A stretch of 64,000 nucleotides of DNA, from the NCBI GenBank assembly GCA_047967505.1, contig CM106538.1; one strand, given 5' to 3'. The translations under genes and the position numbers were made by a program. The DNA comes from Dipteris shenzhenensis (taxonomy: Eukaryota). Below the pieces are notes generated by a model that saw nothing but the letters and a program-made list of their open reading frames with translations, ran no database searches and was not told where the DNA came from. How positions within the stretch are numbered: position 1 is the first letter of the stretch; every line of letters starts with the position of its first letter. Of the stretch, positions 11,510 through 63,823 are shown in pieces.

Positions 11510-11866
11510 TGTGAAGAAAGTGGGAGAGAAGTAAGGAGTCTCACTTGCAAGTTTCTCACATACACAATGGGGAATACACACAAAGGTGGAGGCTGAAAAC
11601 AGTTTTCCTCTTCTTAGTTGTGAAGGCCAAAAGAACTCTCTCTTAGTACAAAAGGAATAGATGAACCCTATATGTGGGTCTCAAACCAAACTCAGCTAAC
11701 CTAGGTGGCATACTAACTGAGCCACTAACTAGAGTACATAAAGGTAGTTATCATCCAGCTATTATTCATGGGTGGTGTACCAATCGCATCTATAGCTAAC
11801 AAGTCAGTGACATAAATGCACAACGGTCACCCTGGCATATCACGAGTGGAGCTCGATATCTCAACA
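11510..11866 (-). repeat. 3' LTR of copia B copy 1
   Basis: TGTTGA...CTTCACA on the minus strand, next to the PPT. It is the inverted homolog of 29465-29570 plus 32159-32401. Confidence 0.88.
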
Positions 11867-13619: not shown

Positions 13620-16600
13620 TCAATTAAGAGCATTTACATCAAGTGTTTCATCTTGAGCCAAGTCTAAGGCGCCAAACAAGTCTATCTCTAGCTCTATACC
13701 GAGTTGATCTCCTATATCATCATCGTACTCTAGCATCGTATGTTCACCTAAAAGTATTTGATCATCTTCTTCAATAAAGTGTGGTAATTGTTGATGATTG
13801 TTGTCTTCTTCCTCAATATCATGATCTCCATCTTCCTCTCGTGTGATGTCATTATGCGCATCTTCCTCTTGGCTCATATGGTGATCTACATCTTCTTCGC
13901 TAGATTCATCAATTGGATCCGGCATTGGTAGTGGCATCTCCATATCCACATCTCTATCTTCAAAAATTTGCTTACTTCGTGGTGCAACTTGGATCACGTA
14001 CCACCATCTTGGATCAGAACAATCTGGATGAAAAACCACCTATATTAAAGATGGGTGCCAAATGTGGTCAATTATATATATGAAATTATGCTCAAGTACA
14101 TGTATCAATGGATCTTTAAAAACGAAAGCTTCGATTAATTAAATCATTAGTATGCACCTGCTCACAGTGCTCGGGAAGAACAAAAGTATCACTTTCATCG
14201 GTGCAATGTTTGGTGGAGTCTATTGCAAAGAAACTGCTACTATCTTTTCTCACTATTGCATGGGGACCGTTGTAAATAGTTCTAAACCATTTCACATTAA
14301 GAATGAAAATACTAAATCGTCTGAAATCAACTTGATAGATGTCACGTATGGTTCCACAATAATCCAACTGTGAGCAGAGAAGATTGGTATCCAAAGCACT
14401 TACTCGGCTATCTTGTGTGAAGTTAGCCATGACTCCACAATCATACATGACTCTCTTTGAATCGATGCATTTCACACGAAAATGTTGTCCATATGACCAT
14501 AATGCACTATACTTTTTGTACTATAAAAGAGCATCATTAAAACAATGAAGATGCATCTATTTTATAGCGTATATAGCCACAAATAATTACTTAATTATGT
14601 CAAGAGGTAAGAAACTTACATGCACCATACATCCAGATGATAACTCTCGCTCATGCTTGTTTATTGTCTCTCCATCACGTTCGGCTTTACGTAGAGCTAG
14701 TTGTAGCCAATCAAGTGACATGTGAGTAGGGAGAAGAGCTAGATCCCGTGGATATGGTTGTGATTGCCTGTACATTACTCTGAATCTCGTCCTTGCATTT
14801 ATTCTTTCTGCTTTGGCCACTTCATATCTCTCAATCCACTTCTGCATCTCAGGGCTATTGAGGATACAAAACTTATTGAATTTCTCCATTTGCTCTTCGC
14901 TCATCTTTCTTTCAATCCCTTTTCCTTGGGGAACCTCGCCAATGATGCGATCATCGTCCTTTTTTTCCCAAGCTTGCGGCATATCGGGATCCGTCGATGC
15001 AAGAAACTCTGTGATATATACTAATGACTCTTGCACAAGCCATCCCTCTACCATGCTTGCTTCTGGTCTTGCTCTTTGTCTTACAAATCCCTTTAAAGTT
15101 TTCATAAACCGCTCAAGAAAAAACATCCATCGACTATGAACGGTACCTGCTATAGCCACCTCATCAAATATGTGCACAAGCAAGTGGACTTGAGTTGTCA
15201 TAATGCTCGAGGGAAAGTGCTTCTCAAGCAAGCATAAGACTTCGATGGGTTCCACCCTAGCCTTCTCGATGCTCGAATGGAGATCTCTTTTTGAGATATC
15301 CACCTATTTCATATGTCCATGTAAGATATTTTCATAATCAGTCTACAGATTAATCAGCTTAAATTGAAGAAAATGCAATCAATGCAATTTGATAGTAAGC
15401 ATACCTCACAATACCACAGATCTTGAATATAGCATTTCTAACATCTTCTTGTAAGCACCCTTTTATTGTAATTGGGAGGATGAACTATCAAAGCAACAAA
15501 GAAGTCATGTCAACAATATAACATAATCATAATTACGCTAACGCATCATGATTATCAGTACACTAATTCTACTTAGAATACCTGTAAGACCTTGTGTCAA
15601 TCATGGGACTTGAGCCCACTAAGCTTATTGTCCTTTGAAAATGCTCCTTTCAAGCAATGCATGTACCCTGTCGGTGTTTGAAAAGAGGCATTGTCTGCCT
15701 TGACCACTGCCTCGTCCCTCGTAGAGAGGATCCACGTTGCTTTCGGGAGGACAACTTTTCTCGAAGCATGCACTTGGGGCCACAAACGAGACATCCTATT
15801 CATAGCACGCAAGTCTTCTCACACTCTTCTCGAGTCTTTGGAACCAACCAAGTGTGCCCAAATAGTAGCCCCCACATTCTTGAAGATATATGCATGGGAT
15901 CCAAGAGATGATTGATTTGTAACTGACCCCAATAAGGAAGCTCGTGAAATATCGATAGCCTCTTCATACCAGGAGGAGGTTCCTCTCCATTCACCCTCCA
16001 AGCTTGAATCCAGTCACTTGCCTTCAAATATGATGGTGGTGGATCAAGCTGACCTCCACGTGCAAGATGGTCGAGCGGAAGGTATTGAGCATGACATTCA
16101 TAAACATTTTTCCTCATATGTTTGGAGTAGCGTGCAAGCGATTTCAGAGCCAGTCCACAAACAGGACAAGCACAAGTCTTGTACGCGTGCATGAATGTTT
16201 TAGTACAAGACATGCATGTGAAAGAGAGTCATAAAAGCATAATCCCTCATTATACATGTAAAGACACAACCGCGTATCTGTGCACTCTCCATATCCTGGG
16301 TAGTCATGCATGGTCCACGTCAAGATACCCCTGACCAAAATATCATTGTTATGTCATGAGCTCTGGAAATATCAAAGACCTGCACTCCTCTCCATAATAT
16401 CTATAACTCCTCTATCAAAGGTGCCATGTACACATCCATATTTTTTGCCTTGTACTTTCTTGGCACAAGTAGTGCAAGCATGAGTGTCCCTTTTTTATTG
16501 TTAGCCATGGTGGGATATTGTAATTCACCACGACTATGGGCCATGTCGACCAAGATGTCGAGCGTAACCCGAAAGGATTCACGCCGTCCATGGTGAGCCC

Positions 16601-17726
16601 AAGATGTAAGTTGCATGGCTCCCTCGCAAAGTCTAGCCACTGATTATCTATGTGCTTCCAAGCTGCACAATCTATGGGAATCCTCAATGTGTCATTAGTG
16701 GACCGATGAGATGCATGCCATGTCATTAACTCCGTTATGGATTTGCATCGGAACATGTGTTGTATTCTTGCAATGATGGGAAAGTGTCTCAAGACCTTTA
16801 CCAGTATCCGCTCACTCTGCAAGTCATCTCTATATCATTGTTCCCCACACTTTGGACAACTAGCGAAATCTCCATGCTAATGACAAAAGAGAATACAATC
16901 ATTACGGCAAGCATGGATGGTATCATAATCCATACCCACCATTGTTAGCATCTTTTCCGCTTCATCTCTTGATGGGGGCATGGTATTTGGTACAGGCAAC
17001 ATCTTCTGGAGCAACCTATGACAATTCAAACATACATAGGCTTCGAACAATGATGATTCGGTATACACTATCTAAATGATGATTCCCAAAACAAACATGA
17101 TGATTCTCAAAACAAACAATATCCAAATAATGAGTCAAATTAATGCAAGAGCTAACCTCATGAAGGCCGAGACACTTGTATCTGACCACCCATACTTTAC
17201 TTGCAGATTCAAGATTGAGAGACAAGCACGTAGTTTAGACATCCTAGCACCCTCGTATAATTGTGTTGATTGCAACTCTCGCATTTTGACCTCAGACTCT
17301 GACATCACGTGTACATGGGATGTAGTGCCCCTAAAAATGGAATCCATCATGTCGACCATACCCTCGTCATCATCGGGGAGACTATAGTCTTGCTCAAAGT
17401 GAGAAGGTATATGCGTACCCTCATCACCCTCCTCATTCTGTTTTAAGATTTCGTGTAAATATAAGATCTTTTATTTCTTGGTATCCAATAAGACTCGAAG
17501 TTAAATAGCTTTGACTTACTGATGGTCCATCAACACGTGCAACACCAATAGTGGGTACTGGTTTGGGCTCCTCCCCATACATCCGCAAGTGGCGCATGAT
17601 AATACGACGTTGATGTCATACTTCTCGCTTGCAATGAGTGCAATGACAGTATAATCTCTCCATAAGCCACTCCATGCTCCCGAGCATTGGCGCATCATCG
17701 GACGAGTTTCCACTCGTCCCTTCCAT
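13620..17726 (-). pseudogene. CACTA TnpD-like transposase (multi-exon, stops and frameshifts)
   Basis: N-terminal CHCTHC...RHL...G, then CRNDCILF. Transposase_21-type motifs KVLRHFP, NLHLGLTMDGVNPFG...STWP, HLLDPMH, LSGLKSHD. DUF4218-type QVHLLVH...RWMFFLERFMKTLK...RPEASMVEG. DUF4216-type YCGTI...VKWF...FVLPEHCEQV. Acidic C-terminal tail. Confidence 0.9.
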
Positions 17727-17831
17727 CTACACTTATAAAATCACAACATAAGTTGCAAGGAAAATATATTAACAATAATAAAATAGCATCTATGAGCTTC
17801 CCTTCATGTTAGAACAAAAAGTGACTTAAAG

Positions 17832-17912
17832 CGTCACTATATAGCGAATTTTTGCTGTGTTCCATCACTATATAGTGACGTTTTTAATTAAAAATATCGC
17901 TATATAGCGATG
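17832..17912. promoter_or_regulatory. Internal cluster of the CACTA-1 subterminal palindrome between the two divergent genes
   Basis: GTCACTATATAGCGAA, ATCACTATATAGTGAC and ATCGCTATATAGCGAT (17896-17911) match the motif found at both element ends. A regulatory role is inferred. Confidence 0.5.
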
Positions 17913-18559
17913 ATGCTGTGGGTTAAAACCCAAGACTCGCGTCACACGGTGCTTTCTTTAGTAATCTCTCTAATCTCTCAAGTAACCAAGGCAATCTCTC
18001 CTCCCACCTATTTTCGATGACCTCCCACCTATTTCTGACAACCTCCCACTCTATTCTCCACTCCTCACCCTTCTCCTAGCTCTTGTACTCCCTCTCTACC
18101 CTTTTCCCTCTTTGGTTTCTTGAAAGGAAGTTCTTCAAAAGGTGAGTTTGTTTCAACAATGTAGGCTATTTTTTGTTAGCTTTAGTTTTGTGAGTGCTTC
18201 TCCTTGTATTGCTAAACCTGTAAACTAGTTTTCATGCTTGTTTTCAAAGGATTGAAACAAAAAACGAGATTTCAAGAAAGAAAGAAGACTCACCTCTTTT
18301 TTGTATTTCTATTCCTTCTCTTTCTCCTTGTCTCCTCAATCTCCTCCTTTCAAGAAGTTACTTTTGTAATCTCCTCCTTCCTCTAATATCTTATTTGAAA
18401 AATGGTACGTTTCCTCTCTTTTATAGGGCTAGTCCACAACACCGAGTGGGATGTACTATTTCAGATAAGTGCTTTCTCTTTTTACCATTTATTATTTTTG
18501 TTATTTGCATTGGCCTGCAGTTAGCGCCTTAAGTGCTAGCTACAGTGATGGGTGTAGGA

Positions 18560-21110
18560 ACCCTCTCTTCCCCTCAATCTCTTTCCTTCTTCTCTCCTTC
18601 AATCTCTTTCCTCCTCTTTTTCCCTCTTTCCTTTTCCTCTTCTTCTCTCTTTCTTTCCCTCTTTTTCCTTCTTTCCTTTCCCTCCTTCTCTCTTTCCCCC
18701 TTCTCTTATGCTCATGCATAAACATAAGCATAAGCATAAGAGAAGGAGACATATGCTCATGCTTATGCTTATGCATGAGCATAAGAGAAGTAGACGTATG
18801 CTCATGCATAAGCATGAGCATATGTCTCTTTCCTTTTCCTCTTCTTCTCTCTTTCTTTCCCTCTTTTTCCCTCTTTCCTTTCCCTCTTCTTCTCTCTTTC
18901 CCCCTTCTCTTATGCTCATGCATAAACATAAGCATGAGCATAAGAGAAGGAGACATATGCTCATGCTTATGCTTATGCATGAGCATAAGAGAAGTAGACA
19001 TATGCTCATGCATAAGCATGAGCATATGTCTCTTTCCTTTTCCTCTTCTTCTCTCTTTCTTTCCCTCTTTTTCCCTCGTTCCTTTCCCTCTTCTTCTCTC
19101 TTTCCCCCTTCTCTTATGCTCATGCATAAACATAAGCATGAGCATAAGAGAAGGAGACATATGCTCATGCTTATGCTTATGCATGAGCATAAGAGAAGTA
19201 GACGTATGCTCATGCATAAGCATGAGCATATGTCTCTTTTTTCCTTCTTTCTCTTTCCCTCTTCTTCTCTCTTTCTCTCCCTCTTTCCTCTTTTCCAATC
19301 TCTCCTTCCTTTCCCTCTTTTTCTCTCTTCTCCTCTTTTCCCCCTCTTTTCCCTCTTTCCTTTCCCTCTTATTCTCTCTTTCCCCCTTCTCTTATGCTCA
19401 TGCATAAGCATAAGCATGAGCATAAGATAAGAAGACATATGCTCTTTCTCTTTCTCCTTTCCCTCTTCTTCTCTCTTTCCCAATCTCTCTTTCCCAATCT
19501 CTCTTTTCCAATCTCTCTTTCCTCTTTTCTAATCTCTCTTTCCTCTTTCTTCTTCCCTCTTCTTCTCTCTTTTTCCCTCTTCTTCTCTCTTTTTTTCCTC
19601 TTTCTCCTTTCCCTCTTCTTCTCTCTTCTCCTCTTTTCTCCCTCTTTTTCCCTCTTTCATGCTCATGTTCTTATGCTCATGCATAAGCATAAGTTAAGCA
19701 TGAGCATATGTCTCCGTCTCTTATGCTTATGCATAAGACTCCTCTTATGCATAAGCATAAGCATGAGCATAAGAGAAGGAGATATATGCTCATGCTGATG
19801 CTTCTTTCCCTCTTCTTCTCTCTTTCCCTCTTCTTCTCTTTTCCAATCTCTCTTTTCCCTCTTTCCTTTCCCTCTTCTCTCTTCTCCTCTTTTCCCCTCT
19901 TTTTTTCCTCTTTCTCCTTTCCCTCTTCTTCTCTCTTCTCCTCTTTTCCCCTCTTCTTTCTCTCTTCTTTCTCTCTTCTTTCTCTTCTCTCCCTCTTCTT
20001 CCTCTTTCCTCTCCCTCTTTCCTTTCCCTCTTCTTCCTCTTCTCGTCCACTTCCTCTTTTCCCTCTTCTTTCTCTCCTTTCCCTCTTTCCTTTCCCTCTT
20101 CTTTCTCTTCTCCTCCACTTTCTCTTTTCCCTCTTCTCTCCCTCTTCTTCAGATTCCTCTTCCTCTTCTTCCTCCTTCTCTCCCTCTTCTTCCTCTTCCT
20201 TTCCCTCTTTCGTTTCCCTTCTCTTTCCCCCTTCTCTTATTTTCTCTTCTTTCTCTCTTCTTCCTCTTCTCTCCTTCTTCTTCCTTTTCTTTCCCTCTTT
20301 CCTTTCCCTCTTCTTCCTCTTCTCGTCCACTTCCTCTTTTCCCTCTTCTTTTTCTTCTTTCCCTCTTTCCATTCCCTCTTCTTCCTCTTCTCCTCCACTT
20401 TCTCTTTTCCCTCTTCTCTCCCTCTTCTTCAGATTCCTCTTCCTCTTCTTCCTCCTTCTCTCCCTCTTCTTCCTCTTCCTTTCCCTCTTTCCTTTCCCTT
20501 CTCTTTCCCCCTTCTCTTATTCTCTCTTTCCCTCTTTCCTTTCCCTTCTCTTTCCCCCTTCTCTTATTCTCTCTTCTTTCTCTCTTCTTTCTCTTCTCTC
20601 CCTCTTCTTCCTTCTCTTTTCCTCTTTCCTTTCCCTCTTCTTCCTCTTCTCGTCCACTTCCTCTTTTCCCTCTTCTTCCTCTTCTTTCCCTGTTTCCATT
20701 CCCTCTTCTTCCTCTTCTCCTCCACTTTCTCTTTTCCCTCTTCTCTCCCTCTTCTTCAGATTCCTCTTCCTCTTCTTCCTCCTTCTCTCCCTCTTCTTCC
20801 TCTTCCTTTCCCTTCTCTTTCCCCCTTCTCTTACTCTCTCTTTCCCCCTTCTCTTATTCTCTCTTCTTTCTCCCTTCTTCCTCTTCTCTCCCTCTTCTTC
20901 CTCTTCTTTCCCTCTTTCCTTTCCCTCTTCTTTCTCTTCTCGTCCACTTCCTCTTTTCGCTCTTCTTCCTCTTCTTTTCCTCTTTCCTTTCCCTCTTCTT
21001 CCTCTTCTCCTCCACTTCCTCTTTTCCCTCTTCTCTCCCTCTTCTTCAGATTCCTCTTCCTCTTCTTCCTCTTTCTCTTCCTCTTCTTCCTCTTCTCTCC
21101 CTCTTTGCCT
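18560..21110. repeat. Polypyrimidine (CT-rich) tract with 204-bp tandem units built from ATGCTC/ATGCTT/ATGCAT hairpin motifs
   Basis: Unit starts at 18701, 18905 and 19109 (period 204). Nearly pure C/T from ~19800 to 21100. Lies between GT donor-like sites (18142, 18405) and an AG immediately before the ATG at 21171. Confidence 0.9.
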
Positions 21111-21170
21111 ATGCCTATGCTTATGTTTGTTTTTACGTTTTTTGTTTTTGTGTTTGTGTCTATGTTAGAC

Positions 21171-22720
21171 ATGGGATCACGTCACTCATTCGACGAGTAC
21201 GGACAGCCTCGTAGGAGGAGAGCTCACGATCTATATGCTCCAGAGGACTTTGATTCCTCTCAGGTGACTACCTCGAGGACTACCCCTGGTCTGACTCCTC
21301 TTGGACCTAGCACTACGACTACCCCTGGTCTGACTCCTCTTCCATGTAGCACTGCGACTACCCCTCGGGGAACTCCTTTCTAGCCATGCATGGCTTTGTC
21401 GGGAGTCCCCACGAGTTTGTAGCGCAGATGAGGGATGAGGAGGCAGCGAGATTCTTCTCTCTGCTATCTCAGAGCAATTCCCTCCCCTACACCGATGGCT
21501 GGACGTACTGCCCAGCCGTCCCCTCATGCCCCTTCGATCGAGGGGTCATCATTTGCGCATGCCTCTCATAAGGGAAGGAAGAGTAGGAAGGGCAGCTTAT
21601 GTTGTGCTAACTCAGGAGATGTAGACGAGTTAGCACACTCACATTCCTACAGGTCTCCACTTGGTCCAGAGACACAGTATCAGTCAAGTCCCTTGCCCTC
21701 TTCTACTCCCACTGCTACTCCTCGCTCCGGAAGCGTTCGCACATCTTCCACTCCTTCTGACTCTGCTAGCATCAGTCCTCCTTACTCATCAGGGGATCTC
21801 TCCTATCAAATCACAGTTGCCGGAGAGATAATAGAAGATAGAAAGGGCAAAGTAGTGATGGCCACCATGAGGCGGTTGATGATCCATCACTTCAAGAGCG
21901 GCATTGCTACCGATTGGTGGTATCAAGATGACCAAAAGAAGCAGGCGGTCATCGATGAATTAAAACAAAAATACCCTAACCCGCCAAATTGGGAGTTTAA
22001 TGAGGATTATATGCGAGAGCGCATGGGTTTGGTCTTGAAGCATCATAGATCAACCTTGCATACTTCCATCACAAAGGGGTTGGCTAAACCCAGCTGGGTA
22101 GACAAAGCTGATTGGAAGTTCTTCAAGAAGTAGAATAGGGACAATCCGAAATTATTCGAGGGTCAGAGGAAGGCTGCGAAGAGATAGCTAGACATAGTAG
22201 GTACTTCGCACTTTGGTGCAGGTGAACGGTTGGCATTCGAGGCAACCATGGTAAGTCTACTTCTTCTCATTTAATGTATTGTTCTATTTGTTTTACTACA
22301 TATTACATGCACTTTAGCTAACTCTAACTCTCGTAAATTGGATCCACAGCAAGCTGCGATGGGTCATCTTCCTACAGATGCAGAGACGCGATGTGCATTT
22401 TGCATAGGAACAAAGCCGTGGTTTATTGAGCAAGAGGCAATGGGAGCGACGATCGATTGGGCTGAGGTGGCTGCTCGCATGGTATAAGTCTACTCCTACT
22501 TGTAATCTCAGTTTTTAAATTGTTTTATTCTTTAAGTTTCAATCTAATTTTTGATTTATATGGTTCACTCTTAGGGTCAAAGCTCAAGCGTCCCATCATC
22601 AGAGGTGAGCGATCACCAGGGCCAGGGATCAGATGCACGTGACGAGAATCAGGGAGAAGGTGCAGCTCATGAGGACCAAGGAATAGGCCAACAAGACAAG
22701 GACGATTCGGATTCGGATGA
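21171..22720 (+). pseudogene. CACTA ORF2 (TnpA/Transposase_24-like), disrupted, oriented opposite to the transposase
   Basis: Ser/Thr/Pro-rich N-terminus, then AKPSWVDKADWKFFKK*NRDNPKLFEGQRKAAKR*LDIVGTSHFGAG, a P-x-W...W...H-x-G pattern like CACTA ORF2 proteins. Donor GTAAGT at 22251, acceptor at 22349. A homolog lies at 43150-43660. Confidence 0.65.
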
Positions 22721-25700
22721 GTAGTCGTAGTAGTAGTGGTAGTAGCAGTTTGCATTTTCTATGTATGTCATTTTGTATATCTGGTTGTTTGAGCAATTTT
22801 GTATCGCCCTTTCGAAAGGATAATTTTGTAACAAACAATGTTGTATATGTTCGACATGTATATGCTTTTGTTGCTTGATCATTTCATTTGAGCGATTTTG
22901 TATCACCCTTTTCGCAAGGGAAATTTTGTTATAAAAAAGCTTTGTTTTGTAATTATTTTAAAAAAAAAAGGATTAGTAGGGCTAAACAGGGCCATAGCAA
23001 GCCCTATTTAGCCCCACTAATCCTTTTTTTTTAGTTCTGTTAATCGTCGCTATATAGCGACGTTTACCAGTGTCATTATATAGCGATGATTAATAGTGTC
23101 GCTATATAGTGATATTTATCATCATCGCTATATAGCGACGGTTCTTTTTCGACGCTTTTAGCGACTTTTATAGCGACATTTGTGCCCGTGAAAATTTTTT
23201 TTTAAATGTAAAAAGCGTCGGTATTTTTGTCAGAAAAGGGCCTATGCCTTGTAGTGTGTGCTTCACCTTATAGACCCACTTGCAACCAATTGCATTCTTG
23301 TCTTTAGGCAAAGGCACCAATTCCCATGTAGCATTTGCTTCCAAGGCATCCATTTCTTCATCCATGGCTTTCTCCCATTTTTCTTTTCCCATGGCTTGCT
23401 CGAAAGAAGTGGGTTTTGGTTCATGTATCACTTTGACCATATAGGCATAGTGAATGGCTGTAAATCCATCATATTTTAGCCTATCCACATGATACTTAAC
23501 TCTGGTAGACCTGTGGAAAATAGGCTCACTAGCAGGTGCTCTCAAAACATCCCTTGTCTTCCTTACTCCAGGTGTAACAACAGAAGGAATACCCAACTCA
23601 TCATCAAGGCTCTGTTCTGAGACACTGGATTCACCATCCACATAAGAGTGACCTGCATTCACATCAACCATGGGCTGATCTACTTTCTCTTTTCCCTTTC
23701 GTGATACTTGGATACCACTATCTGCATTGCTTTGAGGAGATTCTCCTGATCTCAATCTGCTTGTCCATGGTGAAGTATGTGAACCACTGTTAGAGGATAC
23801 TACAGGTCCATTAATATTTTGTGATTGCTGCTGTAAATTTTGTGTAGCATTACCATTTTGTGCACCTACATAATCAATCATATTTACCAGTTTATACTAG
23901 CTGCTCATCTCATAAAAGACATCTCTGCTCATTGTAAACTTACGAGTAGAAGGATTATAGCATCTATACCCTCTCTACTGTAGAGAATAACCAATAAAGA
24001 TGCACTTCTCAGCTTTTGGATCCAACTTGGATCTCAACTCATCTGGCACATGAACATAGGCAATGCAACCAAAAACTTTCAAATGAGAAATATTTGGTTT
24101 CCTACTAGTATACCTCTCCTCTGGCATCATGCCATGTATTGCTGCAGTGGGAGTCTTATTCATTATGTAGACTGATTTAGCAACTGCTTCAGCCCAATAA
24201 TAATGAATAACCTGGATCTCAACTTTCTTAGCTCTTGGATCTCAACTCATCTGGCACATGAACATAGGCAATGCAACCAAAAACTTTCAAATGAGAAATA
24301 TTTGGTTTCCTACTAGTATACCTCTCCTCTAGCATCATGCCATGTATTGTTACAGTGGGAGTCTTGTTCATGATGTAGACTAATTTAGCAACTGCTTTAG
24401 CCCAATAATAATCTAGTAGGTCTTTTCGTTGAGCATGGCATGAGATACCTCTCCAATATGCATGTTTTTCCTTTCTGCAAGTCTGTGGGGTATGACTGCA
24501 AGAATATTGCTGCTTTATGCCATGCTCCTTCAGGAACCTTGCAAACTCATTTGAGAGGTACTCTCCACCTCCATCTGACCTTAGGCATTTTATTTGCAGG
24601 CCTGTTTCTTTCTCAACCATGGCTTTAAAAGCTTTGAAATGCCCAAACACTTCACTTTTCTTTTTCATAAAATACACCCAAACTTTTCTATTGTAGTCAT
24701 CAATAAAAGTGACAAAATAATGACATCCTCCAATAGATGTAGCTTTAGTAGTCCACACATTAGAGTGGATTAATTCCAATGGCCTCTTACTCTCTTGAAC
24801 ATGTCTAGGAAATGGTTTCCTTGCCTATTTTCCAAGTTAACAGGCTTCACATCCTTATGCATTTCTGCAACCTTGAACTGTACATTAATTTAAGTCGATG
24901 TACATTAACATGACCAATGCGTTTATGCTAGATATCAATATCTACAACTACACCGATCCCATGTGCAAACATTGCTGCACTCAATTCAAGCATGTCCACA
25001 TCCAACGTAAACATCCTGCCCTTCTTCTTTCCTTTTGCTATCAAGCAACCTTTATTTTTCATATCCTCAACAAAGCATCCATGAGGATTAAATTTGACTT
25101 GCAAGCCTTGCTCAACCATTTGACCAATAGAAACCAGGTTCTTGGTGATATTCGGGACATGAAATACATCAGGCAGGTATTTCTTTTTCCCATCCTACAT
25201 AGACAAAGGAATTTTACCAATCTGCACAATAGGATGTGTAGTATCATTACTAGTCTCCACAAATCCTAGTCTTTCCATTTTCCTTGCATCCTGCATCCAT
25301 TCTGCATGACTTGTCATGTGGTTTGATGCACCTGAGGCAACATACCACACATCATTGCTTTCTTCTACACTTGTCATAGAATTGGTCATGTGCTGCACCA
25401 TAAACAAATGCTCATTTCTGTCATTACCCTGTCTACTAGAGGATGCATAATTGCCTTGCTGCAATTTTCCATTCATGATGTCATTCTGCTTTTTGTAGCA
25501 GTCTTTAGCCATATGACCCATTTTACCATAGTAGTAGCATTCAACATTGATGTTTGCATTTTGGCCTCTCTGCAATCCACCATGACCTCTTTGGCTCCCC
25601 TTGCCTCTAAAGATACCACGTCCTCCTCCATAGGACTGGTTTTCTTGAATTTGTTGCATATTCTGATTTCTGCCATAGCCTCCAGATCTCGGCCTGCTCT

Positions 25701-28700
25701 ACCTCTGCCTCTACCTCTTCTAGCATTTGAGTAGAAGACAATTTCTTTTGAAATTCCTCCTGAAGAAGATGCACCACCATTTCTCTGCTCTTCAAAAATT
25801 AGAAGAGCAATCAACTCCCCAAAATCAAGAAAATTCTCACGTATGGCAATGGATGTCTGGAACTTTGCATAATCCTTTCCTAGACCATTCAAGGTCATAG
25901 AAACTAAATCATCATCTTCCACTGGTGACCCAATAGAAGCAAGTGCATCTGCAATCTTCTTCACCTTCATGTGGTAGTCATTGATGCTCATATTTTCTCT
26001 CTGCACATTATGCAACTCCTGCTTGAGCTGCATTTTCCTAGCTTGCGTATTTGTGCTATACATTTTTGTCAAAGTATCCCATGCCTCCTTCAGCGTGCTT
26101 ACATCCTGAATATGCACAATCATAGAATCTGAAATACTGATAGACAGCCAATACATAACTTTCCTGGCTCTATTTATGGTGCAGCACATGACCAATTCTG
26201 TGACAAGTGCAGAAGAACGAAATGATGTGTGGTATGTTGACTCAAGTGCATCAAACCACATGACAGGTCATGCATAATGGATGCAGGATGCAAGGAAGGA
26301 TGCAAGGAAAATGGAAAAACTAGGATTTGTGGAGACTGGTGATGATACTGCACATCCTATTGTGCAGATTGGTAAAATTCCTTTGTCTATGTAGGATGGG
26401 AAAAAGAAATACCTGTCCGATGTATTTCATTCCCGAATATCACCAAGAACCTAGTTTCTGTTGGTCAAATGGTTGAGCAGGGCTTGCAAGTCAGATTTAA
26501 TCCTCATGGATGCTTTGTTGAGGATATGAAAAATAACGGTCGCTTGATAGCAAAAGGAAAGAAGAAGGGCAGGATGTTTACATTGGATGCGGACATGCCT
26601 AAATTGAGTGCAGCAATTTTTGCACATGGGACTGGTGTTGTTGCAGATATTGATATCTGGCATAAACGCATTGGTCATGTTAATGTACAACGACTTAAAT
26701 CAATGCAGGCCCAAAATATTGTTGCAGGATTGCTAAATTCAAGGTTACAGAAATGCATAAGGTCTGTGAATCCTGTCAATTTGGAAAACAGGAAAGGAAA
26801 CCATTTCCTAGGCATGTTCAAGAGAGTAAGAAGCCATTGGAATAAATCCACTCTGATGTGTGGACTACTCAAGCTGCATCTATTTGAGGCTGGATTATTT
26901 TGTCACTTTTATTGATGACTACAGCAGAAAAGTTTGGGTGCATTTTATGAAAAAGAAAAGTGAAGTGTTTGGGCATTTCAAAGCTTTTAAAGCTATGGCT
27001 GAAAAAGAAACAGGCCTGCAAATAAAATGCCTAAGGTCAAATGGAGGGGGAGAGTACCTCTCAAATGTTTGCAAGGTTCCTACAGGAGCATGGCATAAAG
27101 CAGCAATATTCATGCAGTCATACCCCACAGCAAAATGGACTTGCAGAAAGGAAAAACAGGCATATTGGAGAGATATCTCGGGCCATGCTAAATGAAAAAG
27201 ATCTACCAATTTATTATTGGGCTGAAGCAGTTGTTACAGTAGTTTACATAATGAACAGGACTCCCACTACAACAAGGCATGACGCCAGAGGAGATGTATA
27301 CTGGTAGGAAACTAGATATTTCTCATTCGAAAATTTTTGGTTGCATTGCCTATGTTCATGTGCCAGATGAGTTGAGGTCCAAGTTAGATCCAAAAGCTGA
27401 GAAGTGCATCTTTATTGGTTATTCTCTGTAGCAGAAAGGGTATAGATGCTATAACCCTTCTACTCGTAAGTTTACAATGAGCAGAGATATTGTTTTTGAT
27501 GAGATGAGTAGCTGGTATAAACCAGTAAATGTGATGATTGATGTAGATGCACAAAATGGTAATGCTGCACAGAATTCACAGCAGCAATCACAAAATATCA
27601 GTGGACCTGCAGTGTCCTCTAGCAGTGGTTCACATACTTTGCCACAAAAAGGAAAAGAGAAGGTAGATCAGCCCATGTTTGATGTGAATGCAGGTCACTC
27701 TTACGTGGATGGTGAATCCAGTGGCTCACAACAGAGCATTGATGATGAGTTGGGTATTCCTTCTATTGTTACACCTGGAGTAAGGAAGACCACAGATGTT
27801 TTGAGAGCACCTGGAAGTGAGCCTATTTTGCACAGGTCTACTAGAGCTAGGTATCCTATGGATAGGCTAAAATATGATGGATTTATAGCCATTCACTATG
27901 CCTATATGGTCAAAGTGATATAGGAACCAAAACCCACTTCTTTTGAGCAAGCTATGGGAAAAGAAAAATGGGAGAAAGCCATGGATGAAGAATTGGATGC
28001 CTTGGAAGCAAATGCTACATGGGAATTGGTGCCTTTGCCTAAAGACAAGAATGCAATTGGCTGTAAGTGGGTTTATAAGATCAAGCACAATGCAGATGGT
28101 TTTGTGAACAGATACAAGGCAAGATTAGTTGTCAAGGGGTATGCACAAACATATGGCATTGATTATGAAGAAACATTCAGTCCAGTTGCAGGGATGGCAA
28201 CTGTAAGAGCAGTCATTGCTATGGCTGCATCAAAGGGATGATCTTTACATCAGATGGATGTAAAGAATGCCTTCTTGCATGGTGATTTGCAAGAAGAGGT
28301 CTTTATGGAGCAGCCACCAGGTTATGTTCATGCTATTCATCCTAAGTTTGTTTGCAGGTTAAAGAAAGCCTTGTATGGCTTGAAGCAAGCACCTAGAGCA
28401 TGGTCTGACAAGATAGGACAATATCTTGTCACTATTGGCTTTCAGATTTCCAAGGCAGATTTCTCACTCTATGTGAGAAAAATAGAGAAAAGTATTATGC
28501 TGCTTGTTATTTATGTTGATGATTTGATCATCACAGGTGATAGTGATGAAGATATCCTTCATGTGAAAATGCTATTGAAGCAGAAGTTTGAGATGAAGGA
28601 TTTGGGAGAGCTGTGTTATTTCTTGGGCATTGAGGTGATTAGATCACCAAGTGGGATACAGCTCTTGCAGAGGTAGTATGGATTGGACATGCTATCCAAA

Positions 28701-29692
28701 TATGGGATAACAGGCTGTAAGCCTATTTCAGTTCCTTTAGAGCAGAATGTGAAGCTGAGCATAGATGCAGGTGAGCTTTTGGAAGACCCTACTATATACA
28801 GACGCATAGTAGGAAGTTTGATTCATATGACTATTACCAGGCCAGATTTAAGCTATGTTGTTGGATTGGAAAGTCAGTTTATGCAGGCTCTAAGGAAACC
28901 GCATTTGGATGCGGCTAGATGCATACTCAGGCATGTGAAGTCCACATTGCAGTATGGACTATTTTGTGAGGCTGGGGTTCAGATACAGTTGCATGGATAC
29001 ACTGATGCTGATTGGGCTGGTAGTATTTCTGATAGACGATCTACCAGTGGATATGTGTTCTCTTTTGGGAGTGCTGCAGTCACCTGGAGCAGCAACAAAC
29101 AGCCTATAGTTGCCTTGTCAAGCACAGAGGCTGAGTACAAGGGTGCAACAATGGCTACATGTGAGGTACCTTGGTTGCATAAGCTACTTTATGATATGGA
29201 TCAGTGGGCCAGTTGTCATTTATTGTGACAACATGAGCAGTATACACTTGGCAAATAACCCAGTCTATCATGCTAGAACAAACACATTAAGGTGCATTAT
29301 CACTATGTGCAGGAGAAGGTTTTACTAATTCTTATTGATCTAGTTTATGTCAGCACAGAGGATCAGGTAGCTGACATATTCACGAAGGCATTGGGTGCAG
29401 AGAAGCTACGCAAGTTCAGAGACCTGCTTGGTGTGCAGGAATTGGGATTGAGCTCGAGGGGGAGTGTTGACATATCGAGCTCCACTTGCAATATGCCAGG
29501 GTGACCGTTGTGCATTTATGTCACCAACTTGTTAGCTGCAGATGCGGTTGGTACACCGCCCACGACACTTGGTATCAGAGCTCAGAGGACGGAAGACGCG
29601 GAAGACGGGAAACGCAGAGGTGGAAGACGCTTGGTGACAGAACGGACCACAGTGGTGCGCAACATTGTGGGAAGGTCTGAAGTCAAGTTGCC

Positions 29693-30832
29693 ATGGATAA
29701 GGGAATGATGATGAAAGCAGGTCGGAGTTTACCATTGGAAAACGCAGACGGGAGCGTAGTGCGAACGGCGGTCGAGATTATGAGGAAGGTGCCAGAATGG
29801 GTGACGGTCTTGATCAAGAAGGACATGAGCTACCTTCAAGGGTTAGTTCACCGCTTCGATATGGAGGGTGACTCCGAGAAGTGGCGCCATGAGTTCTTTG
29901 TGGTTTTCAGACTTGTCTATGATATTTACCTCAAGGGAGAATTCGGACCGACCGTGGAACCGGAAAGTGACTCGGAAACGGACTCAGGGGAAGAGTCTGA
30001 AGCAGAAACGGCGATGGAGCCGGAGGATGCGGATCTAGAAGAGGAAGAACGGCGACAGTGGAGCCAGAGATGGTGGCAGTCAAGGACTGAACCACAAGCA
30101 GTGGGGAAGTCGAAGGGGAACGGCCAAGGGAGAGCCGTGGGAAACACAAACGGGAACGGCCAAGGGAGAGCCGTGAGAAACGCAAACGGGAACGGCCAAG
30201 GGAGAGCCGTGGGAAACACAAAGGGGAACGGCCAAGGAGGAGCCGTGCAAGAGAGAAAGGGAAACGGCCAAGGAGGAGCCATGAAAAAGAAGAAGAAGAA
30301 CGGTCAAGGAGGAACCGTGGAGCCAAGGCAGGGCAGACCTAATGAAGGGTCAAGAGGAACGGGGACACAGAATGGAAACGTGGGCTCAAGACGAGCCGTG
30401 GCAGAAACACCGAGTGTGGGTTCAAGTGGAACCGTGGGCTCAGAGAGAGCTATGATGCAGAGACCGTGTTCAAGCGGAGTCGGTGATGGAAAGGGTAATC
30501 GAAGCCCGGGTGAAAACGGCAAGTCAGGCCGTGATGAACAGATGCAGAGTGGCGACATGAGCCACAGTGAACAAGTGGGATCGGGTGAGATGAGCCGGAA
30601 TGTGTCAAGGAAGAACGGCGAGAAAGGCCGTAGCATGCCAGCGCGGAGCGGCGTCCAAGGCCGCAAGGAACGGAAGCAAGTGGAGGAACAGGTGGGCACC
30701 GCGAGCCCAAGGAAACTAAAGCAAAGGGATGAACAGGTGGGCACCGTGAGCCCAAGGGAACAAAAAGAGGAGGAACAGGTGGGCACCGTGAGCCCAGAGG
30801 ATGATGGACTATTGGAAGAGACCGTGGATTAG
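29693..30832 (+). CDS. Uninterrupted 379-aa ORF of unknown function inside the PBS-first element
   Basis: About 85-aa globular-looking N-terminus, an acidic stretch, ~7 repeats of a 10-aa GNGQGRAVGN-type unit and 3 EQVGTVSP-type repeats. The stop codon overlaps the first bases of the 541-bp repeat, so the ORF may be truncated. Confidence 0.55.
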   Translation: MDKGMMMKAGRSLPLENADGSVVRTAVEIMRKVPEWVTVLIKKDMSYLQGLVHRFDMEGDSEKWRHEFFVVFRLVYDIYLKGEFGPTVEPESDSETDSGEESEAETAMEPEDADLEEEERRQWSQRWWQSRTEPQAVGKSKGNGQGRAVGNTNGNGQGRAVRNANGNGQGRAVGNTKGNGQGGAVQERKGNGQGGAMKKKKKNGQGGTVEPRQGRPNEGSRGTGTQNGNVGSRRAVAETPSVGSSGTVGSERAMMQRPCSSGVGDGKGNRSPGENGKSGRDEQMQSGDMSHSEQVGSGEMSRNVSRKNGEKGRSMPARSGVQGRKERKQVEEQVGTASPRKLKQRDEQVGTVSPREQKEEEQVGTVSPEDDGLLEETVD

Positions 30833-32158
30833 TGCACGTGAACGTGAGCGGGGAACGGTGAGCGGCCCATTCCTTTCATACCATTGTAAATATTCGCGAA
30901 CTGTTGTGTAACCGACCAAGCAAGATGGGCTAAAGGTGGAACGTCGCGGGGCGGGCGTTCCGTGTGTGAAGTGTGAATCGGGGAGGCTATCCCAGGAAGG
31001 TCAGGTGTTGCGCAGGCCCGTGAGTCTGTGTGTCTTCACTGCGAGACCGGGATACAAGCGGGGAGTCGGAACCGTTTGGGGAGCAGTGGCCCATGAAAGG
31101 GGCGTGGGGATCAGAGGATCCGTGAACGGCGGTCTAGGGGAGGACGCGTCGTGGTTGGGATTGGAAACGGCCGTCTAGGTGCAGGACGTGCCAGGGCCCG
31201 TTTTGGCCCGAAAACGCAGAGGCGTCGCGGGACGCAAACGAGCTGCGGATAGCTCCGAGTGTGTCTGGGGCTGGTGAGTCCTAGGTGCGCCTGAGGTCAG
31301 CGGGCCGGGTCGAGAGAGATCCGCTGCATAGAGAAAAATTCTAAGTCCCGAAGACCTGGTCCGTGACACTTGGTATCAGAGCATGGAAGGTGGTCTCCCT
31401 GCATGTGAGGTTGCGTCCAGCAGGAAAACGTAATGATGCGGTTGTGCGCTCAGTTGCTTGTAAATACTCTTTCTTGCAGTCTAGCGTTATCAAGCCATCG
31501 TTTGGCACTCTTTCTAGTACTTTCTTGCAAGTAACGTCTCGGGCCGTTTTACGTGTTGTGATCTCGTGGTGCACTTGTGTGGGCACACACCGGAAAGCAG
31601 AACGTGGGAAGGGCGTGAGTGCACGTGAACGTGAGCGGGGAACGGTGAGCGGCCCATTCCTTTCATACCATTGTAAATATTCGCGAACTGTTGTGTAACC
31701 GACCAAGCAAGATGGGCTAAAGGTGGAACGTCGCGGGGCGGGCGTTCCGTGTGTGAAGTGTGAATCGGGGAGGCTATCCCAGGAAGGTCAGGTGTTGCGC
31801 AGGCCCGTGAGTCTGTGTGTCTTCACTGCGAGACCGGGATACAAGCGGGGAGTCGGAACCGTTTGGGGAGCAGTGGCCCATGAAAGGGGCGTGGGGATCA
31901 GAGGATCCGTGAACGGCGGTCTAGGGGAGGACGCGTCGTGGTTGGGATTGGAAACGGCCGTCTAGGTGCAGGACGTGCCAGGGCCCGTTTTGGCCCGAAA
32001 ACGCAGAGGCGTCGCGGGACGCAAACGAGCTGCGGATAGCTCCGAGTGTGTCTGGGGCTGGTGAGTCCTAGGTGCGCCTGAGGTCAGCGGGCCGGGTCGA
32101 GAGAGATCCGCTGCATAGAGAAAAATTCTAAGTCCCGAAGACCTGGTCCGTGACACTT
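30831..32158 (+). repeat. Direct repeat pair 30831-31371 and 31618-32158 (541 bp, offset 787)
   Basis: No differences found on visual comparison; the ORF track gives identical translations at offset 787. Both copies end CCGTGACACTT. Confidence 0.95.
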
Positions 32159-33132
32159 TGGATGACTGCTATCCTTATCTACTCTAGTTTGTGGCTCAGT
32201 TAGTATGCCACCTTAGTTAGCTGAGTTTGGTTTGAGACCCACATGTAGGGTCCTTCTATTTCTTTGTACTAGAGTTCTTTTGGCTTACACAACTAAGAAG
32301 AGGAAAACTATTTTCAGCCTCCACCTTTGTGTGTATTCCCCCATTATGTATGTGAGAAAGCTGCAAGTGAGCTTTCTTCCTTCTCTCTCACTATCTTCAC
32401 ATGCAATTCCTTGAAAAAAAATTATTTTGCATCCCTTCCAATCACATATGCAATGCCTTGAAAGTTTTTTTAAAACCATTGGTTTTCATGAATGTGATAT
32501 TGCTCAATTCATTCTTGTAGGGCTATTGGCAAAAGAGGCTAGAGAAGATTCATATGGAGCATTGTCATATAAAGTGAGTCAATGAATTTTTAGAATTGAG
32601 GAAATCATAACTTCTTTGCCTTCCTTTTCAATGGGTTGATGTGTACATCATTCTCTATGTATGGAAATGCAAAGACTATGAGTCTTTTAATGGGTTTGTC
32701 TCATCCATGAACGAAAGCAAGCATCATACACATCGTGTCAAATTAAAAAACAAGGGTAGACATGCACGGCCCATACAATTGGGACATAGAGCATCACTAG
32801 TCTCGCTTTGAGGTCCTACCATGATGTAATCAGTGATGCAATCCTTTTGCATGATTTGCTATTGGCTCCCTCTCTCTTCTACAAGAATCCATGAGTTTAC
32901 AAAAAAGGTCAACTTCAAGGAACCTTCCAATCAAAATGTCCTCCCTTACTAGATTGAAGGGCATCTCCTTCTCATCTCAATAGCCACAAGCAAGTAATAC
33001 GTGAGAGGCACACTCCGATTGAATTGAAATCTCTTTCTCATCAATTGAAAAGCATCTCTTTCACACCCCTATAATTTGTGAGAGGTACACTTAGATATTA
33101 GGGATGACATGATAAAAGAATGTTGAATAAGA

Positions 33133-33171
<39 letters not shown>

Positions 33172-44125: not shown

Positions 44126-44187
<62 letters not shown>
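44126..44187. repeat. (CT)n microsatellite
   Basis: Uninterrupted CT run. Other microsatellites occur at ~33134-33169 (CT), ~34023-34073 (TG) and ~63787-63820 (GA). Confidence 0.95.
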
Positions 44188-44190
<3 letters not shown>

Positions 44191-44230
44191 TTTGATTGTG
44201 TCCCTCATGATGCACACGCACATGCACTAA

Positions 44231-44263
<33 letters not shown>

Positions 44264-44554
44264 CTATCTATCTATCTATATATATATATCTCCATTGTAA
44301 GTTTGCTAGAATTCTCGGTCAAAGCAAGCAACATCTCAGTTTGTCAAAGGAAAATAAGAGTTCTATGTTGGCAATAATCCATGCACTATCTTAGAACATA
44401 ATAACGATTGACGCAAAAGGAATGACAACCAAAAAGAGAAATAGCAATTCTATGTTTCTCAACTCGATGGAGCCCATAGCAATATAATAAGACAACCGTT
44501 AGGCTGCTAGGCTCCCTATCTCCCCCCCCTCTCTCTCTCTCTCTCTCTATCCCA

Positions 44555-44654
44555 NNNNNNNNNNNNNNNNNNNNNNNNNNNNNNNNNNNNNNNNNNNNNN
44601 NNNNNNNNNNNNNNNNNNNNNNNNNNNNNNNNNNNNNNNNNNNNNNNNNNNNNN
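44555..44654. other. Assembly gap (100 N)
   Basis: Run of N. Contiguity across it is not guaranteed. Confidence 1.
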
Positions 44655-44819
44655 TAATCATGGTGCCTTTTACATGAAGTAATCTACACTAAACATTTTT
44701 TTCAACCCAAAGATGGCCAAGGGGAACCTTGGGTATGAAGTTGCTGCATGCTAACATTATGCTGCCACACCAACAGATATTTACTTGAAAGAGGGCGTGT
44801 TTGTAAATTCACAACTTCC

Positions 44820-44966
44820 CTGTCTCTCTCTCCTCTCTCTTCTCTCTCCCTCTCTCCTCCTCTCTCTCTCTCTCCTCTCTCCCCCTCCCTCTCTCTCTCC
44901 CTCCCTCTCTCCTCTCTCTCTCCCCCTCTCTCTCTCTCCTCCCTCCCTCTCTCTCCTCTCTCTCTT

Positions 44967-44999
<33 letters not shown>

Positions 45000-45510
45000 C
45001 TCCCTCCCTCTCTCTCTCCTCCCCCCCTCTCTCTCTCTCTATCTCTCCTCTCTCTCTCTCTCTCTCCTCCCTCTCTATCTCTCTCTCTCCTCCCTCTCTC
45101 TCCTCTCTCTCTCTCTTCCCTCTCTCTCCTCTCTCTCTCTCTCCTCTCCCTCTCTCTCTCCTCCCTCTCTCTTCCCTCTCTCTCTCTCTCCTCCCTCTCT
45201 CTCTCTCCTCCCTCTCTCTCTCCTCTCTCTCTCTGTCTCTCCTGCCTCCCTCTCTCTCTCTCTCCTCCCTCCCTCTCTCTCTCCTCCCTCCTCTCTCTCT
45301 CTCTCCTCCCTCTCTCTCTCTCTCTCCCCTCTCCTTCTCTCTCTCTCTCCTCCCTCTCTCTCTCCCTCCGTCCCTCTCTCTCCCCCCTCTCCCCCTCTCT
45401 CTCTCCTCCCTCTCTCTCTCACTCTCTCTCTCCTCCCTCCCTCTCTCTCTCCTCCCTCTCTCTCTCTCTCTCTCCCCCTCTCTCCTCCCTCCCTCTCTCC
45501 CTCTCTCCTC
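44820..45510. repeat. Degenerate CT low-complexity tract
   Basis: About 690 bp of almost only C/T. Confidence 0.95.
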
Positions 45511-47634: not shown

Positions 47635-48617
47635 TGGCACCGCTGTCAGGGAGACAAGCGTCTCAAGTAACGAGTAAACATACGCATATATGTATAAAAA
47701 ACAAACTACTTTGAACTCTCACGGACATAGCACTCAAGGGCAAGGAGAGTAAAATTTTTCCCAACTAAACATATCAACCCAAGCATCAACCTTGGGTTAC
47801 TACCTTAAGAAATTTTCTTTATTGCTTAAAAAGAAGCCACTTGATAAACAAATGAGGCTAGGTAGTGGACATGAATGCGTAGAGCTTATAATTTTGATCA
47901 TTTCAGCTTTTTACAGAAGAGCGATCCGAGCTTACCATGAAAAGTTATGGTGGGGAAGAGTTTAGGATTTAATCCTAAACCTACACCTATTTCTTATAAA
48001 AACCCACTCCACCCCCTCATTCTTCTTCTTTCATATCTTGCCTCCATCCTCTTCCCCATTCTGAGCCCTACGCAAGACACTCCTCCCTCTCCATCGACCA
48101 CCACCCTACTCCCATCCTCACACGGTGAGTTACTTCAAGCCCATCTCGCAGCGATAACCTAGCCATCCACATTCGCCCTCAACAATCCCGTTACATCGAG
48201 AAAGACTTGAAGAGCATTTAGGTGACCATGTCTTCCTCCCTTTGGATTTTCGTCAAAGTTTTCCGTCAGTTAAGTTTCCTCCACCCCCCCACCCCCTCCA
48301 TCCCTCCCTCTCCACCCCCTCCACCACCCCTCCCCCTCCACCCCCACCCCCTCCACCCCCTTTCCCCCCCACCCCTCCACCCCCCCCCTCCCCTCCCAAC
48401 CCCCCCCTTCCCCCAATGCCCCCCTGCCCCCGCCCCCCTCTCCACCCCCCCCCTCCATCCCCTCCACCCCCCCCCTTCCTCCATCTCCACCACCACACAC
48501 CCCCTCTCCACACCCCCCCCTCCATCTCCTCCACCCCCCCCTCTTTACCCTCCCTCCATTCCAAACCCCCCTCTTCCCCCCCCTCCCTCTTCTCTCTCTC
48601 TCTCTCTCTCCTACCCC

Positions 48618-48665
<48 letters not shown>

Positions 48666-63781: not shown

Positions 63782-63823
<42 letters not shown>

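Follow-up and report, generated by a model that had tools for sequence, protein, structure and literature searches.

Insertions with the structure LTR-internal-LTR-internal-LTR (LTR, long terminal repeat) have been described in grasses, and the published model explains them by template switching between two RNAs (Sabot and Schulman 2007, PMC1950507); a more recent study discusses RNA read through from a master copy that is tandem or circular (Mob DNA 2025, PMC11899658). Integrase-independent insertions of Tf1 and HIV-1 are reported to show flanks homologous to the primer-binding site (PBS), truncations of the 5′ LTR, and tandems (Li et al. 2022, PMC11042837). A non-covalent one-LTR circle, with a discontinuity near the PBS, was proposed as an intermediate of plus-strand transfer (bioRxiv 10.1101/2022.09.25.509424). 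[quoted passage not shown] Here we analyze a two-unit insert located at positions 29566–32158 of a 64,000-nt stretch of Dipteris shenzhenensis DNA (contig CM106538.1, assembly GCA_047967505.1), which is called the window below. The insert begins with a PBS, ends with an LTR, and interrupts a Ty1/copia LTR. The explanation toward which we lean is that a break in the copia LTR was filled, without the action of integrase, by a reverse-transcription product that lacked the 5′ LTR and possibly arose by read-through or by template switching of two RNAs. The locus looks like a variant of known phenomena and not like a new recombinase-driven element.

To describe the insert, its sequence was read against the host flanks and the window was compared with itself. 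From left to right, the host is followed by CACT, a PBS, internal region 1, a 541-bp repeat, a second PBS, internal region 2, a second 541-bp repeat, and again the host. The insert is thus made of two head-to-tail units of 1801 and 787 bp, each containing a PBS, an internal region, and the repeat. The repeat copies (30831–31371 and 31618–32158) are identical at 541 of 541 positions, while the two internal regions are alike only in the 11–12 nt of the PBS. The host sequence on the left reads ...GGTACACCGCCCACGA and ends at 29565, and on the right it starts with TGGATGACTGC at 32159. No 5′ LTR was found upstream of the first PBS, either by reading the sequence or in the window self-comparison, and the host directly abuts CACT-PBS. 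The motif GACACTT is present at all three junctions, which account for three of its 11 occurrences in the window (seven on the plus strand and four on the minus strand). The 12-nt PBS, TGGTATCAGAGC, occurs in the window twice, both times inside the insert; we take it to match the 3′ end of initiator tRNA-Met, and presumably the same 12-mer is also that of caulimovirids. An earlier note made from the letters alone (the sequence-only reading) had described a PBS-first, LTR-last layout with neither a 5′ LTR nor a target-site duplication, two units of these lengths sharing only the PBS and the 3′ repeat, and GACACTT at each junction, and all of this was confirmed by sequence reading and by the empty-site comparison described below. 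The same reading had proposed a recent insertion. The observed to expected ratio of CpG is 0.98 in the element, which has a GC content of 57%, versus 0.16–0.24 in its flanks. This ratio, together with the identity of the LTR copies, indicates that the structure is very young, and a subsequent loss of a 5′ LTR with nearly exact ends would have had to fit into a short time.

The borders of the 541-bp repeat were then considered. The units become identical at AGTG, which in each of them immediately follows a different purine-rich tract, and remain so up to CACT and the first T of the PBS. These tracts are both broken by C and T (Table 1). The ends of the repeat are inverted, although imperfectly, with the start AGTGCACG matching the reverse complement of the end, AGTGTCACG, at 8 of 9 positions with one extra base. 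The statement of the sequence-only reading that nothing pairs with CGTGACA is therefore literally true, but it overlooks these inverted ends. The start of identity after two different purine-rich tracts and the inverted ends show that the repeat is an ordinary LTR, composed of a TG...CA core and two more bases on each side, as in untrimmed cDNA ends. At the internal junction the PBS begins 2 nt past the CA of the LTR. We read the insert as a non-autonomous LTR retroelement of recent date, with a 536-bp TG...CA LTR and a tRNA-iMet-type PBS, which was probably mobilized by a partner of the Ty3/gypsy type.

The same data explain the origin of the motif common to the junctions. CACTT is the natural end of cDNA unprocessed by integrase, in which CA is the end of U5, CT is the spacer, and the last T is the first base of the PBS; by analogy, it would fit the same kind of end as the U5 end of HIV-1. 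The GA of the left GACACTT consists of host bases 29564–29565, where the copia family reads CCCATGA, so the element contributes only CACTT. Because GA also precedes CACT in the LTR of the element, the position of the left junction is ambiguous by 2 nt. Of the 7-bp core claimed earlier, the presence of GACACTT at each junction was upheld, while only its last five bases are common to the element. A 20-nt string covering the U5 end and the PBS was also used in a pattern scan of 241 million records, which returned a single match, the metagenome contig L001. The likeness extends over 25 nt at 96%, and the string in L001 lies directly before a reading frame with Retrotrans_gag and aspartyl-protease domains. 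This is the canonical gypsy-type layout, which agrees with the earlier description of a typical gypsy U5/PBS junction; it illustrates the type of junction and is no proof. The matching contig contains, at 1–1637 of its minus strand, a gypsy-type element with 338 nt of a presumed LTR end and a gag/protease frame with frameshifts or stops. The same scan of a viral contig collection gave zero matches.

To reconstruct the site before insertion, the host sequence was compared with its relatives. A degenerate Ty1/copia element hosts the insert, which lies in its 3′ LTR about 100 nt from the LTR start, as defined by the polypurine tract GAGGGGGAG followed by TGTTG at 29465. The frames upstream match RVT_2, an SH3-like retroviral domain, and gag_pre-integrs, and are interrupted by stops. 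In the window self-comparison, a paralogous copia copy on the minus strand aligned to both sides of the insert (28087–29562 versus 13231–11769 at 89.8%, and 32159–32401 versus 11757–11510 at 87.1%). The filled site reads CCCACGA-(CACTT...CACTT)-TGGATGA, while the paralog reads CCCATGA-ATAATAGC-TGGATGA. Contigs of four public sequencing runs (X1, X2, X5, and X6) were also aligned to 29200–32500 at 80% likeness; these were contigs from low-depth runs, and the best-matching runs contained only 0.15 of the sampled words. The copia flanks were extremely abundant in all four runs, in which the family is a high-copy one. The insertion point was bridged by at least 15 contigs in X1 and at least 12 in X2, reading ATAATAGC. 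Among the strings listed for these two runs, 10 of 10 that span the site start with TGAATA, most of them going on as TGAATAATAGCT, and none has CACTT. The consensus of loose ends behind 29562, TGAATAATAGC..., which equals TGAATAATAGCT(A/G)GATGA, was the same in 4 of 4 runs.

The comparison with the paralog, the bridging contigs, and the loose-end consensus showed that eight host bases, ATAATAGC, were lost at the insertion, with no duplication. A 4- to 6-bp target-site duplication outside TG...CA was not found, and CACTT flanks GG...GA instead. The possibility that CACTT itself is a 5-bp duplication was dropped, as the host family does not have it. The right junction is not of the kind made by integrase, because past the CA of the LTR it reads CTT, like the LTR/PBS junction inside the insert, in positions that hold AGC in the host family. 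A joint formed at the TGG that the PBS has in common with the host was also considered for the right end and rejected, since it would leave two T's, while three are present. The absence of CACTT from the paralog and the bridging contigs argues, at the level of sequence comparison, against a pre-existing GACACTT or CACTT core in the target. The sequence-only reading had proposed that a circle recombined with a pre-existing GACACTT target and regenerated the site, and had suggested testing whether empty sites carry a single GACACTT; the test goes against this mechanism, as the paralog, the 10 listed strings, and the four run consensuses all lack the core.

The position of the two insert ends is one of the observations behind the favored explanation, the joining of a reverse-transcription product without integrase. 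The left end is 4–6 nt before the PBS, and both ends are in the same phase of the unit. Since the left end corresponds to the end of minus-strand DNA or to the discontinuity of a circle, both ends lie at a natural end of a reverse-transcription intermediate. The earlier suggestion that the units look like one-LTR forms, each opened where U5 meets the PBS, is upheld by our data. The inserted DNA would have the PBS-internal-LTR layout of full-length minus-strand DNA or of a gapped one-LTR circle, captured before plus-strand transfer and strand displacement were complete. The two different units most likely result from one extra template switch between two co-packaged RNAs, which is the simplest route, or from a read-through RNA. 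With a switch, minus-strand DNA primed on RNA A would jump to the 3′ end of RNA B, which would then be copied through its intact 5′ end, and after a second jump to the 3′ end of A synthesis would stop at the PBS of A. The product would be PBS-A-LTR-PBS-B-LTR, as observed. Normal completion would add the 5′ LTR and give the known three-LTR form, and this step is the one missing here. A read-through RNA, transcribed from a master copy in tandem or circular form and then reverse-transcribed, would fit equally well, as would the annealing of two linear units by a short terminal redundancy. Repair synthesis from a genomic tandem or circle was rejected, as it needs the same phase of start and stop by chance.

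In the last step of the favored explanation, both natural DNA ends, at the U5/PBS boundary, would be joined to a chromosome break by host end-joining or annealing repair, with eight host bases lost, 0–2 nt of microhomology on the left, and a weak PBS-like homology on the right. Starting at 32158, 7 of 12 bases agree with the PBS in register, which is a weak match with a background probability of 0.0137 for seven or more, and it would only weakly recall the flanks of integrase-independent Tf1 and HIV-1 insertions. We infer, as opposed to observe, the replication intermediate as the substrate, the way in which the units became joined, and the repair pathway. The features on which this analysis is based are collected in Table 1.

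Table 1. Features of the two-unit insert, its host LTR, and the paralogous LTR, in window coordinates.
Feature	Position	Strand	Remark
Paralogous copia copy, 3′ LTR, used as empty site	11510..11866	-	reads CCCATGA-ATAATAGC-TGGATGA around 11758-11779
Host Ty1/copia 3′ LTR, left part	29465..29565	+	polypurine tract GAGGGGGAG ends at 29464; LTR starts TGTTG at 29465
Left junction CACTT: U5-terminal CA, CT spacer, first T of PBS; non-host	29566..29570	+	copia family has ATAATAGC at the site
Unit 1 PBS, TGGTATCAGAGC	29570..29581	+	from sequence; identical 12-mer precedes gag in contig L001
Unit 1 internal region, 1260 bp	29571..30830	+	purine-rich, T-poor, with 36-nt and 45-nt tandem repeats
379-aa open reading frame	29693..30832	+	its TAG stop extends 2 nt into the repeat; uncertain whether coding
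Purine-rich tract before LTR copy 1	30814..30830	+	12/17 purines; possible polypurine tract
LTR copy 1, unprocessed form AGTG...CACT	30831..31370	+	TG...CA core 30833-31368 (536 bp)
Unit 2 PBS	31371..31382	+	internal U5-CT-PBS junction seamless
Unit 2 internal region, 246 bp	31372..31617	+	shares only the PBS with the unit 1 region
Purine-rich tract before LTR copy 2	31600..31617	+	14/18 purines
LTR copy 2 (AGTG...CACT), same as copy 1	31618..32157	+	CA at 32154-32155; CT, expected to be trimmed by integrase, at 32156-32157
Single T at right junction	32158	+	first base of PBS (templated by the last tRNA nucleotide) or host C-to-T change; family has C
Host copia 3′ LTR, right part	32159..32401	+	

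The coding content of the insert was examined using the 379-aa open reading frame (ORF) and a set of 22 stop-to-stop frames of at least 60 aa. The Pfam scan covered the ORF, which lies within a 383-aa frame, on its own, and 12 other frames of the 22, each of at least 80 aa. No Pfam family was found in the ORF or in the 12 further frames. Hence, the scanned frames contain no gag, protease, reverse transcriptase, RNase H, or integrase domain, in agreement with the sequence-only reading, which had noted the lack of reverse transcriptase and integrase. Neither do they contain the movement protein, capsid zinc finger, protease, or reverse transcriptase/RNase H of caulimovirids, nor a tyrosine recombinase or HUH endonuclease, although an enzyme acting in trans could be encoded elsewhere. 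The ORF had no relatives among proteins of 208–664 residues, and a search of 1.84 billion representatives gave only five weak matches, to its low-complexity repeat. Within the ORF region, a 36-nt stretch that encodes a GNGQGRAV-like unit is repeated five times in tandem (30061–30320) and one of 42–45 nt three times (30660–30801), and it is these repeats that drive the only weak protein matches. A search of the ESM Atlas with residues 1–125 was empty, and no similarity to the gag of L001 was observed. The AlphaFold model of residues 1–130 was helical and of low confidence (mean predicted local distance difference test score of 60). In 14 of 1000 dinucleotide shuffles of the internal region a stop-free frame of at least 383 codons appeared, so equally long frames arise by chance because the region is T-poor. 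The ORF may encode a lineage-specific protein or may be no gene at all. An Rfam scan of 29000–32700 at E ≤ 5 gave three chance-level matches and no family above threshold, and there was no hammerhead, which would mark a retrozyme.

Several points weigh against the joining of a reverse-transcription product without integrase. The structure is known from one locus, with no second copy of the family in the window or in the contigs of the four runs. The element at 29755–32085 was uncovered in these runs apart from a blip at 30199–30309, with another blip at 29644–29754, although for contigs of such low depth this says nothing about the copy number or absence of the element. The pre-insertion state of this copia copy was deduced from relatives that are about 88%–90% identical and from the family consensus, and not from an orthologous empty allele. 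The perfect 541-bp repeat invites an assembly error for the second unit. The 7/12 match to the PBS is weak, and the single match in L001 among 241 million records may be near chance expectation. In addition, a truncation during or after insertion could have reached the U5/PBS boundary by chance.

In the first alternative, an element with three LTRs (LTR-A-LTR-B-LTR) was inserted by integrase and then lost its 5′ LTR, the adjoining copy of the target site, and a few host bases in a deletion by illegitimate recombination via GA. Such a deletion could have used the GA that the LTR shares with the host on the left side of the insert, and small microhomology-flanked deletions are common in plant retroelements. 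Three-LTR insertions themselves are documented in grasses and other plants, according to the accounts in PMC1950507 and PMC11899658. However, insertion by integrase should have left a right junction in which CA is followed by the host with a 4- to 6-bp duplication, and not CTT in place of the AGC of the family. The eight host bases are missing with respect to both sides, and the deletion must have started within about 10 nt of the insertion point, stopped 4–6 nt before the end of the LTR, and preceded any substitution between the 541-bp LTR copies. This makes such a course of events unlikely.

The second alternative is an assembly artefact, in which the second unit, or the join between the units, would be a mis-traversal of a 541-bp repeat shared by two separate elements, the true locus having a single PBS-internal-LTR unit or something else. 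The 100% identity of the copies over 541 bp would allow such an error, and the assembly is not free of gaps (100 N at 44555–44654). On the other hand, the host-CACT-PBS and LTR-CACTT-host junctions are in unique sequence, beyond the reach of a collapse or expansion of the repeat, and with a single unit there would still be no 5′ LTR and a right end not made by integrase. We consider an artefact improbable.

A further explanation, which appears slightly less probable, assumes pararetrovirus-like episomes, that is, non-autonomous one-LTR circles with terminally redundant RNA and a tRNA-Met primer, which were endogenized by end joining at the minus-strand discontinuity in the manner of endogenous caulimovirids. 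This model is in line with the tandem order, with units bounded at the PBS, and with the missing target duplication, and the PBS 12-mer is presumably shared with caulimovirids, as mentioned above. Junctions of endogenous pararetroviruses were described as concentrated in the intergenic region and around the discontinuities of the open circular genome (PMC526188), and non-autonomous pararetroviruses that share regulatory regions with their partners have been reported (PMC5491270). Against this model, the tested frames have no movement-protein, capsid, protease, or reverse transcriptase/RNase H domain, the units are 0.8 and 1.8 kb long, and the pattern search of viral contigs was empty. Moreover, the shared region starts right after a purine tract and has inverted ends of the TG...CA type, which are needed by integrase-based LTR elements and not by pararetroviruses. 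It is similarly doubtful that the locus, far from being a single accident, is the usual product of a small retroelement family that persists as one-LTR, pararetrovirus-like episomes or gapped circles and that these routinely enter chromosomes by end joining at the U5/PBS discontinuity; if true, this would produce stacking PBS-first, LTR-last units and thus an LTR lineage without integrase-type integration. Finally, the model of the sequence-only reading, in which a circle integrates by conservative or microhomology-driven recombination between GACACTT cores, regenerating the site and permitting stacking, is very improbable, because the same seven bases at three junctions and the in-phase unit boundaries that favor it are outweighed by the absence of the core from the paralog, the listed site-spanning strings, and the run consensuses, the host origin of the left GA and the ordinary U5-end/spacer/PBS-start nature of CACTT, and the lack of a recombinase or HUH domain in the scanned frames and of a second copy to show a recurrent junction.

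The window contains other rearranged repeats, beginning with the copia host itself. Its two copia copies, at 11510–26172 on the minus strand and 26173–32401 on the plus strand, are arranged head to head. The plus-strand copy begins abruptly at 26173, at an internal point matching 25404 of the minus-strand copy, while the latter runs into gag-like sequence up to the join, and neither has a 5′ LTR in the window. The pair represents either an inverted partial duplication of the foldback type or an insertion that was truncated. Some 10 kb of other sequence (13232–23256) interrupts the minus-strand copy, and the first 2.4 kb of this sequence (13232–15604) matches 42422–40043 on the opposite strand at 89.8% and so belongs to another repeat family. 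Diverged internal tandem repeats, 69%–77% identical and offset by about 200–1000 bp, are located inside this nested insert at 18563–20172. In one class of X1 contigs, position 32241 of the copia LTR is followed by TATAT and then by the start of the LTR (29465), which suggests rearranged or tandem copies of this LTR elsewhere. Farther away, arrays of simple repeats with a 2-nt period, which match one another, are located at 33134–33171, 44126–45484, 48583–48662, and 63787–63820, and the largest of them (44126–45484) encloses the scaffold gap mentioned above. A direct repeat of about 750 bp, with 84% identity and a spacing of about 945 bp, is present at 55681–57359, and could represent either the two LTRs of a small element or a tandem duplication.

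So far, the integrase-independent insertion of LTR-element cDNA is understood from work in yeast and cell culture, and tandem LTR elements of plants have been attributed to template switching with normal integration afterwards. If the joining of a reverse-transcription product without integrase is correct, the locus would be a natural footprint in a plant that links both, as it combines an unprocessed end, the lack of a 5′ LTR, a target deletion, and two internal regions. It would also mean that replication intermediates of LTR elements can be endogenized in the way that pararetroviruses are, and it would call for caution in annotation, since “truncated” PBS-first elements need not be products of deletion. 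A literature search for PBS-first or integrase-independent insertions in plants found none, which is no proof that none is in print. The weight of these implications is limited by the single, unverified locus.

Non-autonomous plant LTR elements include TRIM, LARD, and TR-GAG, and tandem arrays of Cassandra are reportedly known. The insert resembles such elements in having no pol, in retaining an LTR, a PBS, and a purine-rich tract, which may be a polypurine tract, and in its tandem form. The internal region of unit 2 is TRIM-like in its shortness, while the LTR is larger than in TRIMs. It also differs in that the ORF has no gag signature and the locus is without the 5′ LTR that defines an intact member.

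Compared with endogenous pararetroviruses, as described by Kunii et al. (2004, PMC526188) and Chen et al. (2017, PMC5491270), the insert is similar in the type of PBS, in junctions at the priming discontinuity, in a probable integration by host repair without duplication, and in a regulatory region common to different units. However, it has no caulimovirid domain, its units are ten times smaller, and it has LTR-type inverted ends with a purine tract directly upstream. Each unit has the content predicted for a one-LTR circle and is opened at the PBS, as in the non-covalent circles of Yang et al. (2022, 10.1101/2022.09.25.509424). Those circles were described as extrachromosomal by-products in flies and in assays of mouse elements, while here the sequence is chromosomal.

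The complex and tandem LTR insertions (PMC1950507; PMC11899658) are alike in the shared middle LTR, the two internal regions, and the plant host, and in near-identical LTRs, which imply one round of reverse transcription; a switch between two RNAs would explain the tandem. The cases described there have an LTR at both ends and a 5-bp duplication, whereas the PBS-first insert has neither, keeps bases after the CA, and has unrelated internal regions. The integrase-independent insertions of Tf1 and HIV-1 (PMC11042837) are similar in the absence of an integrase footprint, in the loss of the 5′ LTR, in tandems parted by a single LTR, and perhaps in a PBS-like downstream flank (a weak 7/12 here). 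Those insertions were studied with integrase mutants in fission yeast and in cell culture, and as described they mostly target pre-existing elements by annealing, while the target here is an unrelated copia LTR with weak homology. The features that define this type, no duplication and an untrimmed cDNA end, are both present in the Dipteris insert, where CT(T) is kept after the CA and eight host bases are lost.

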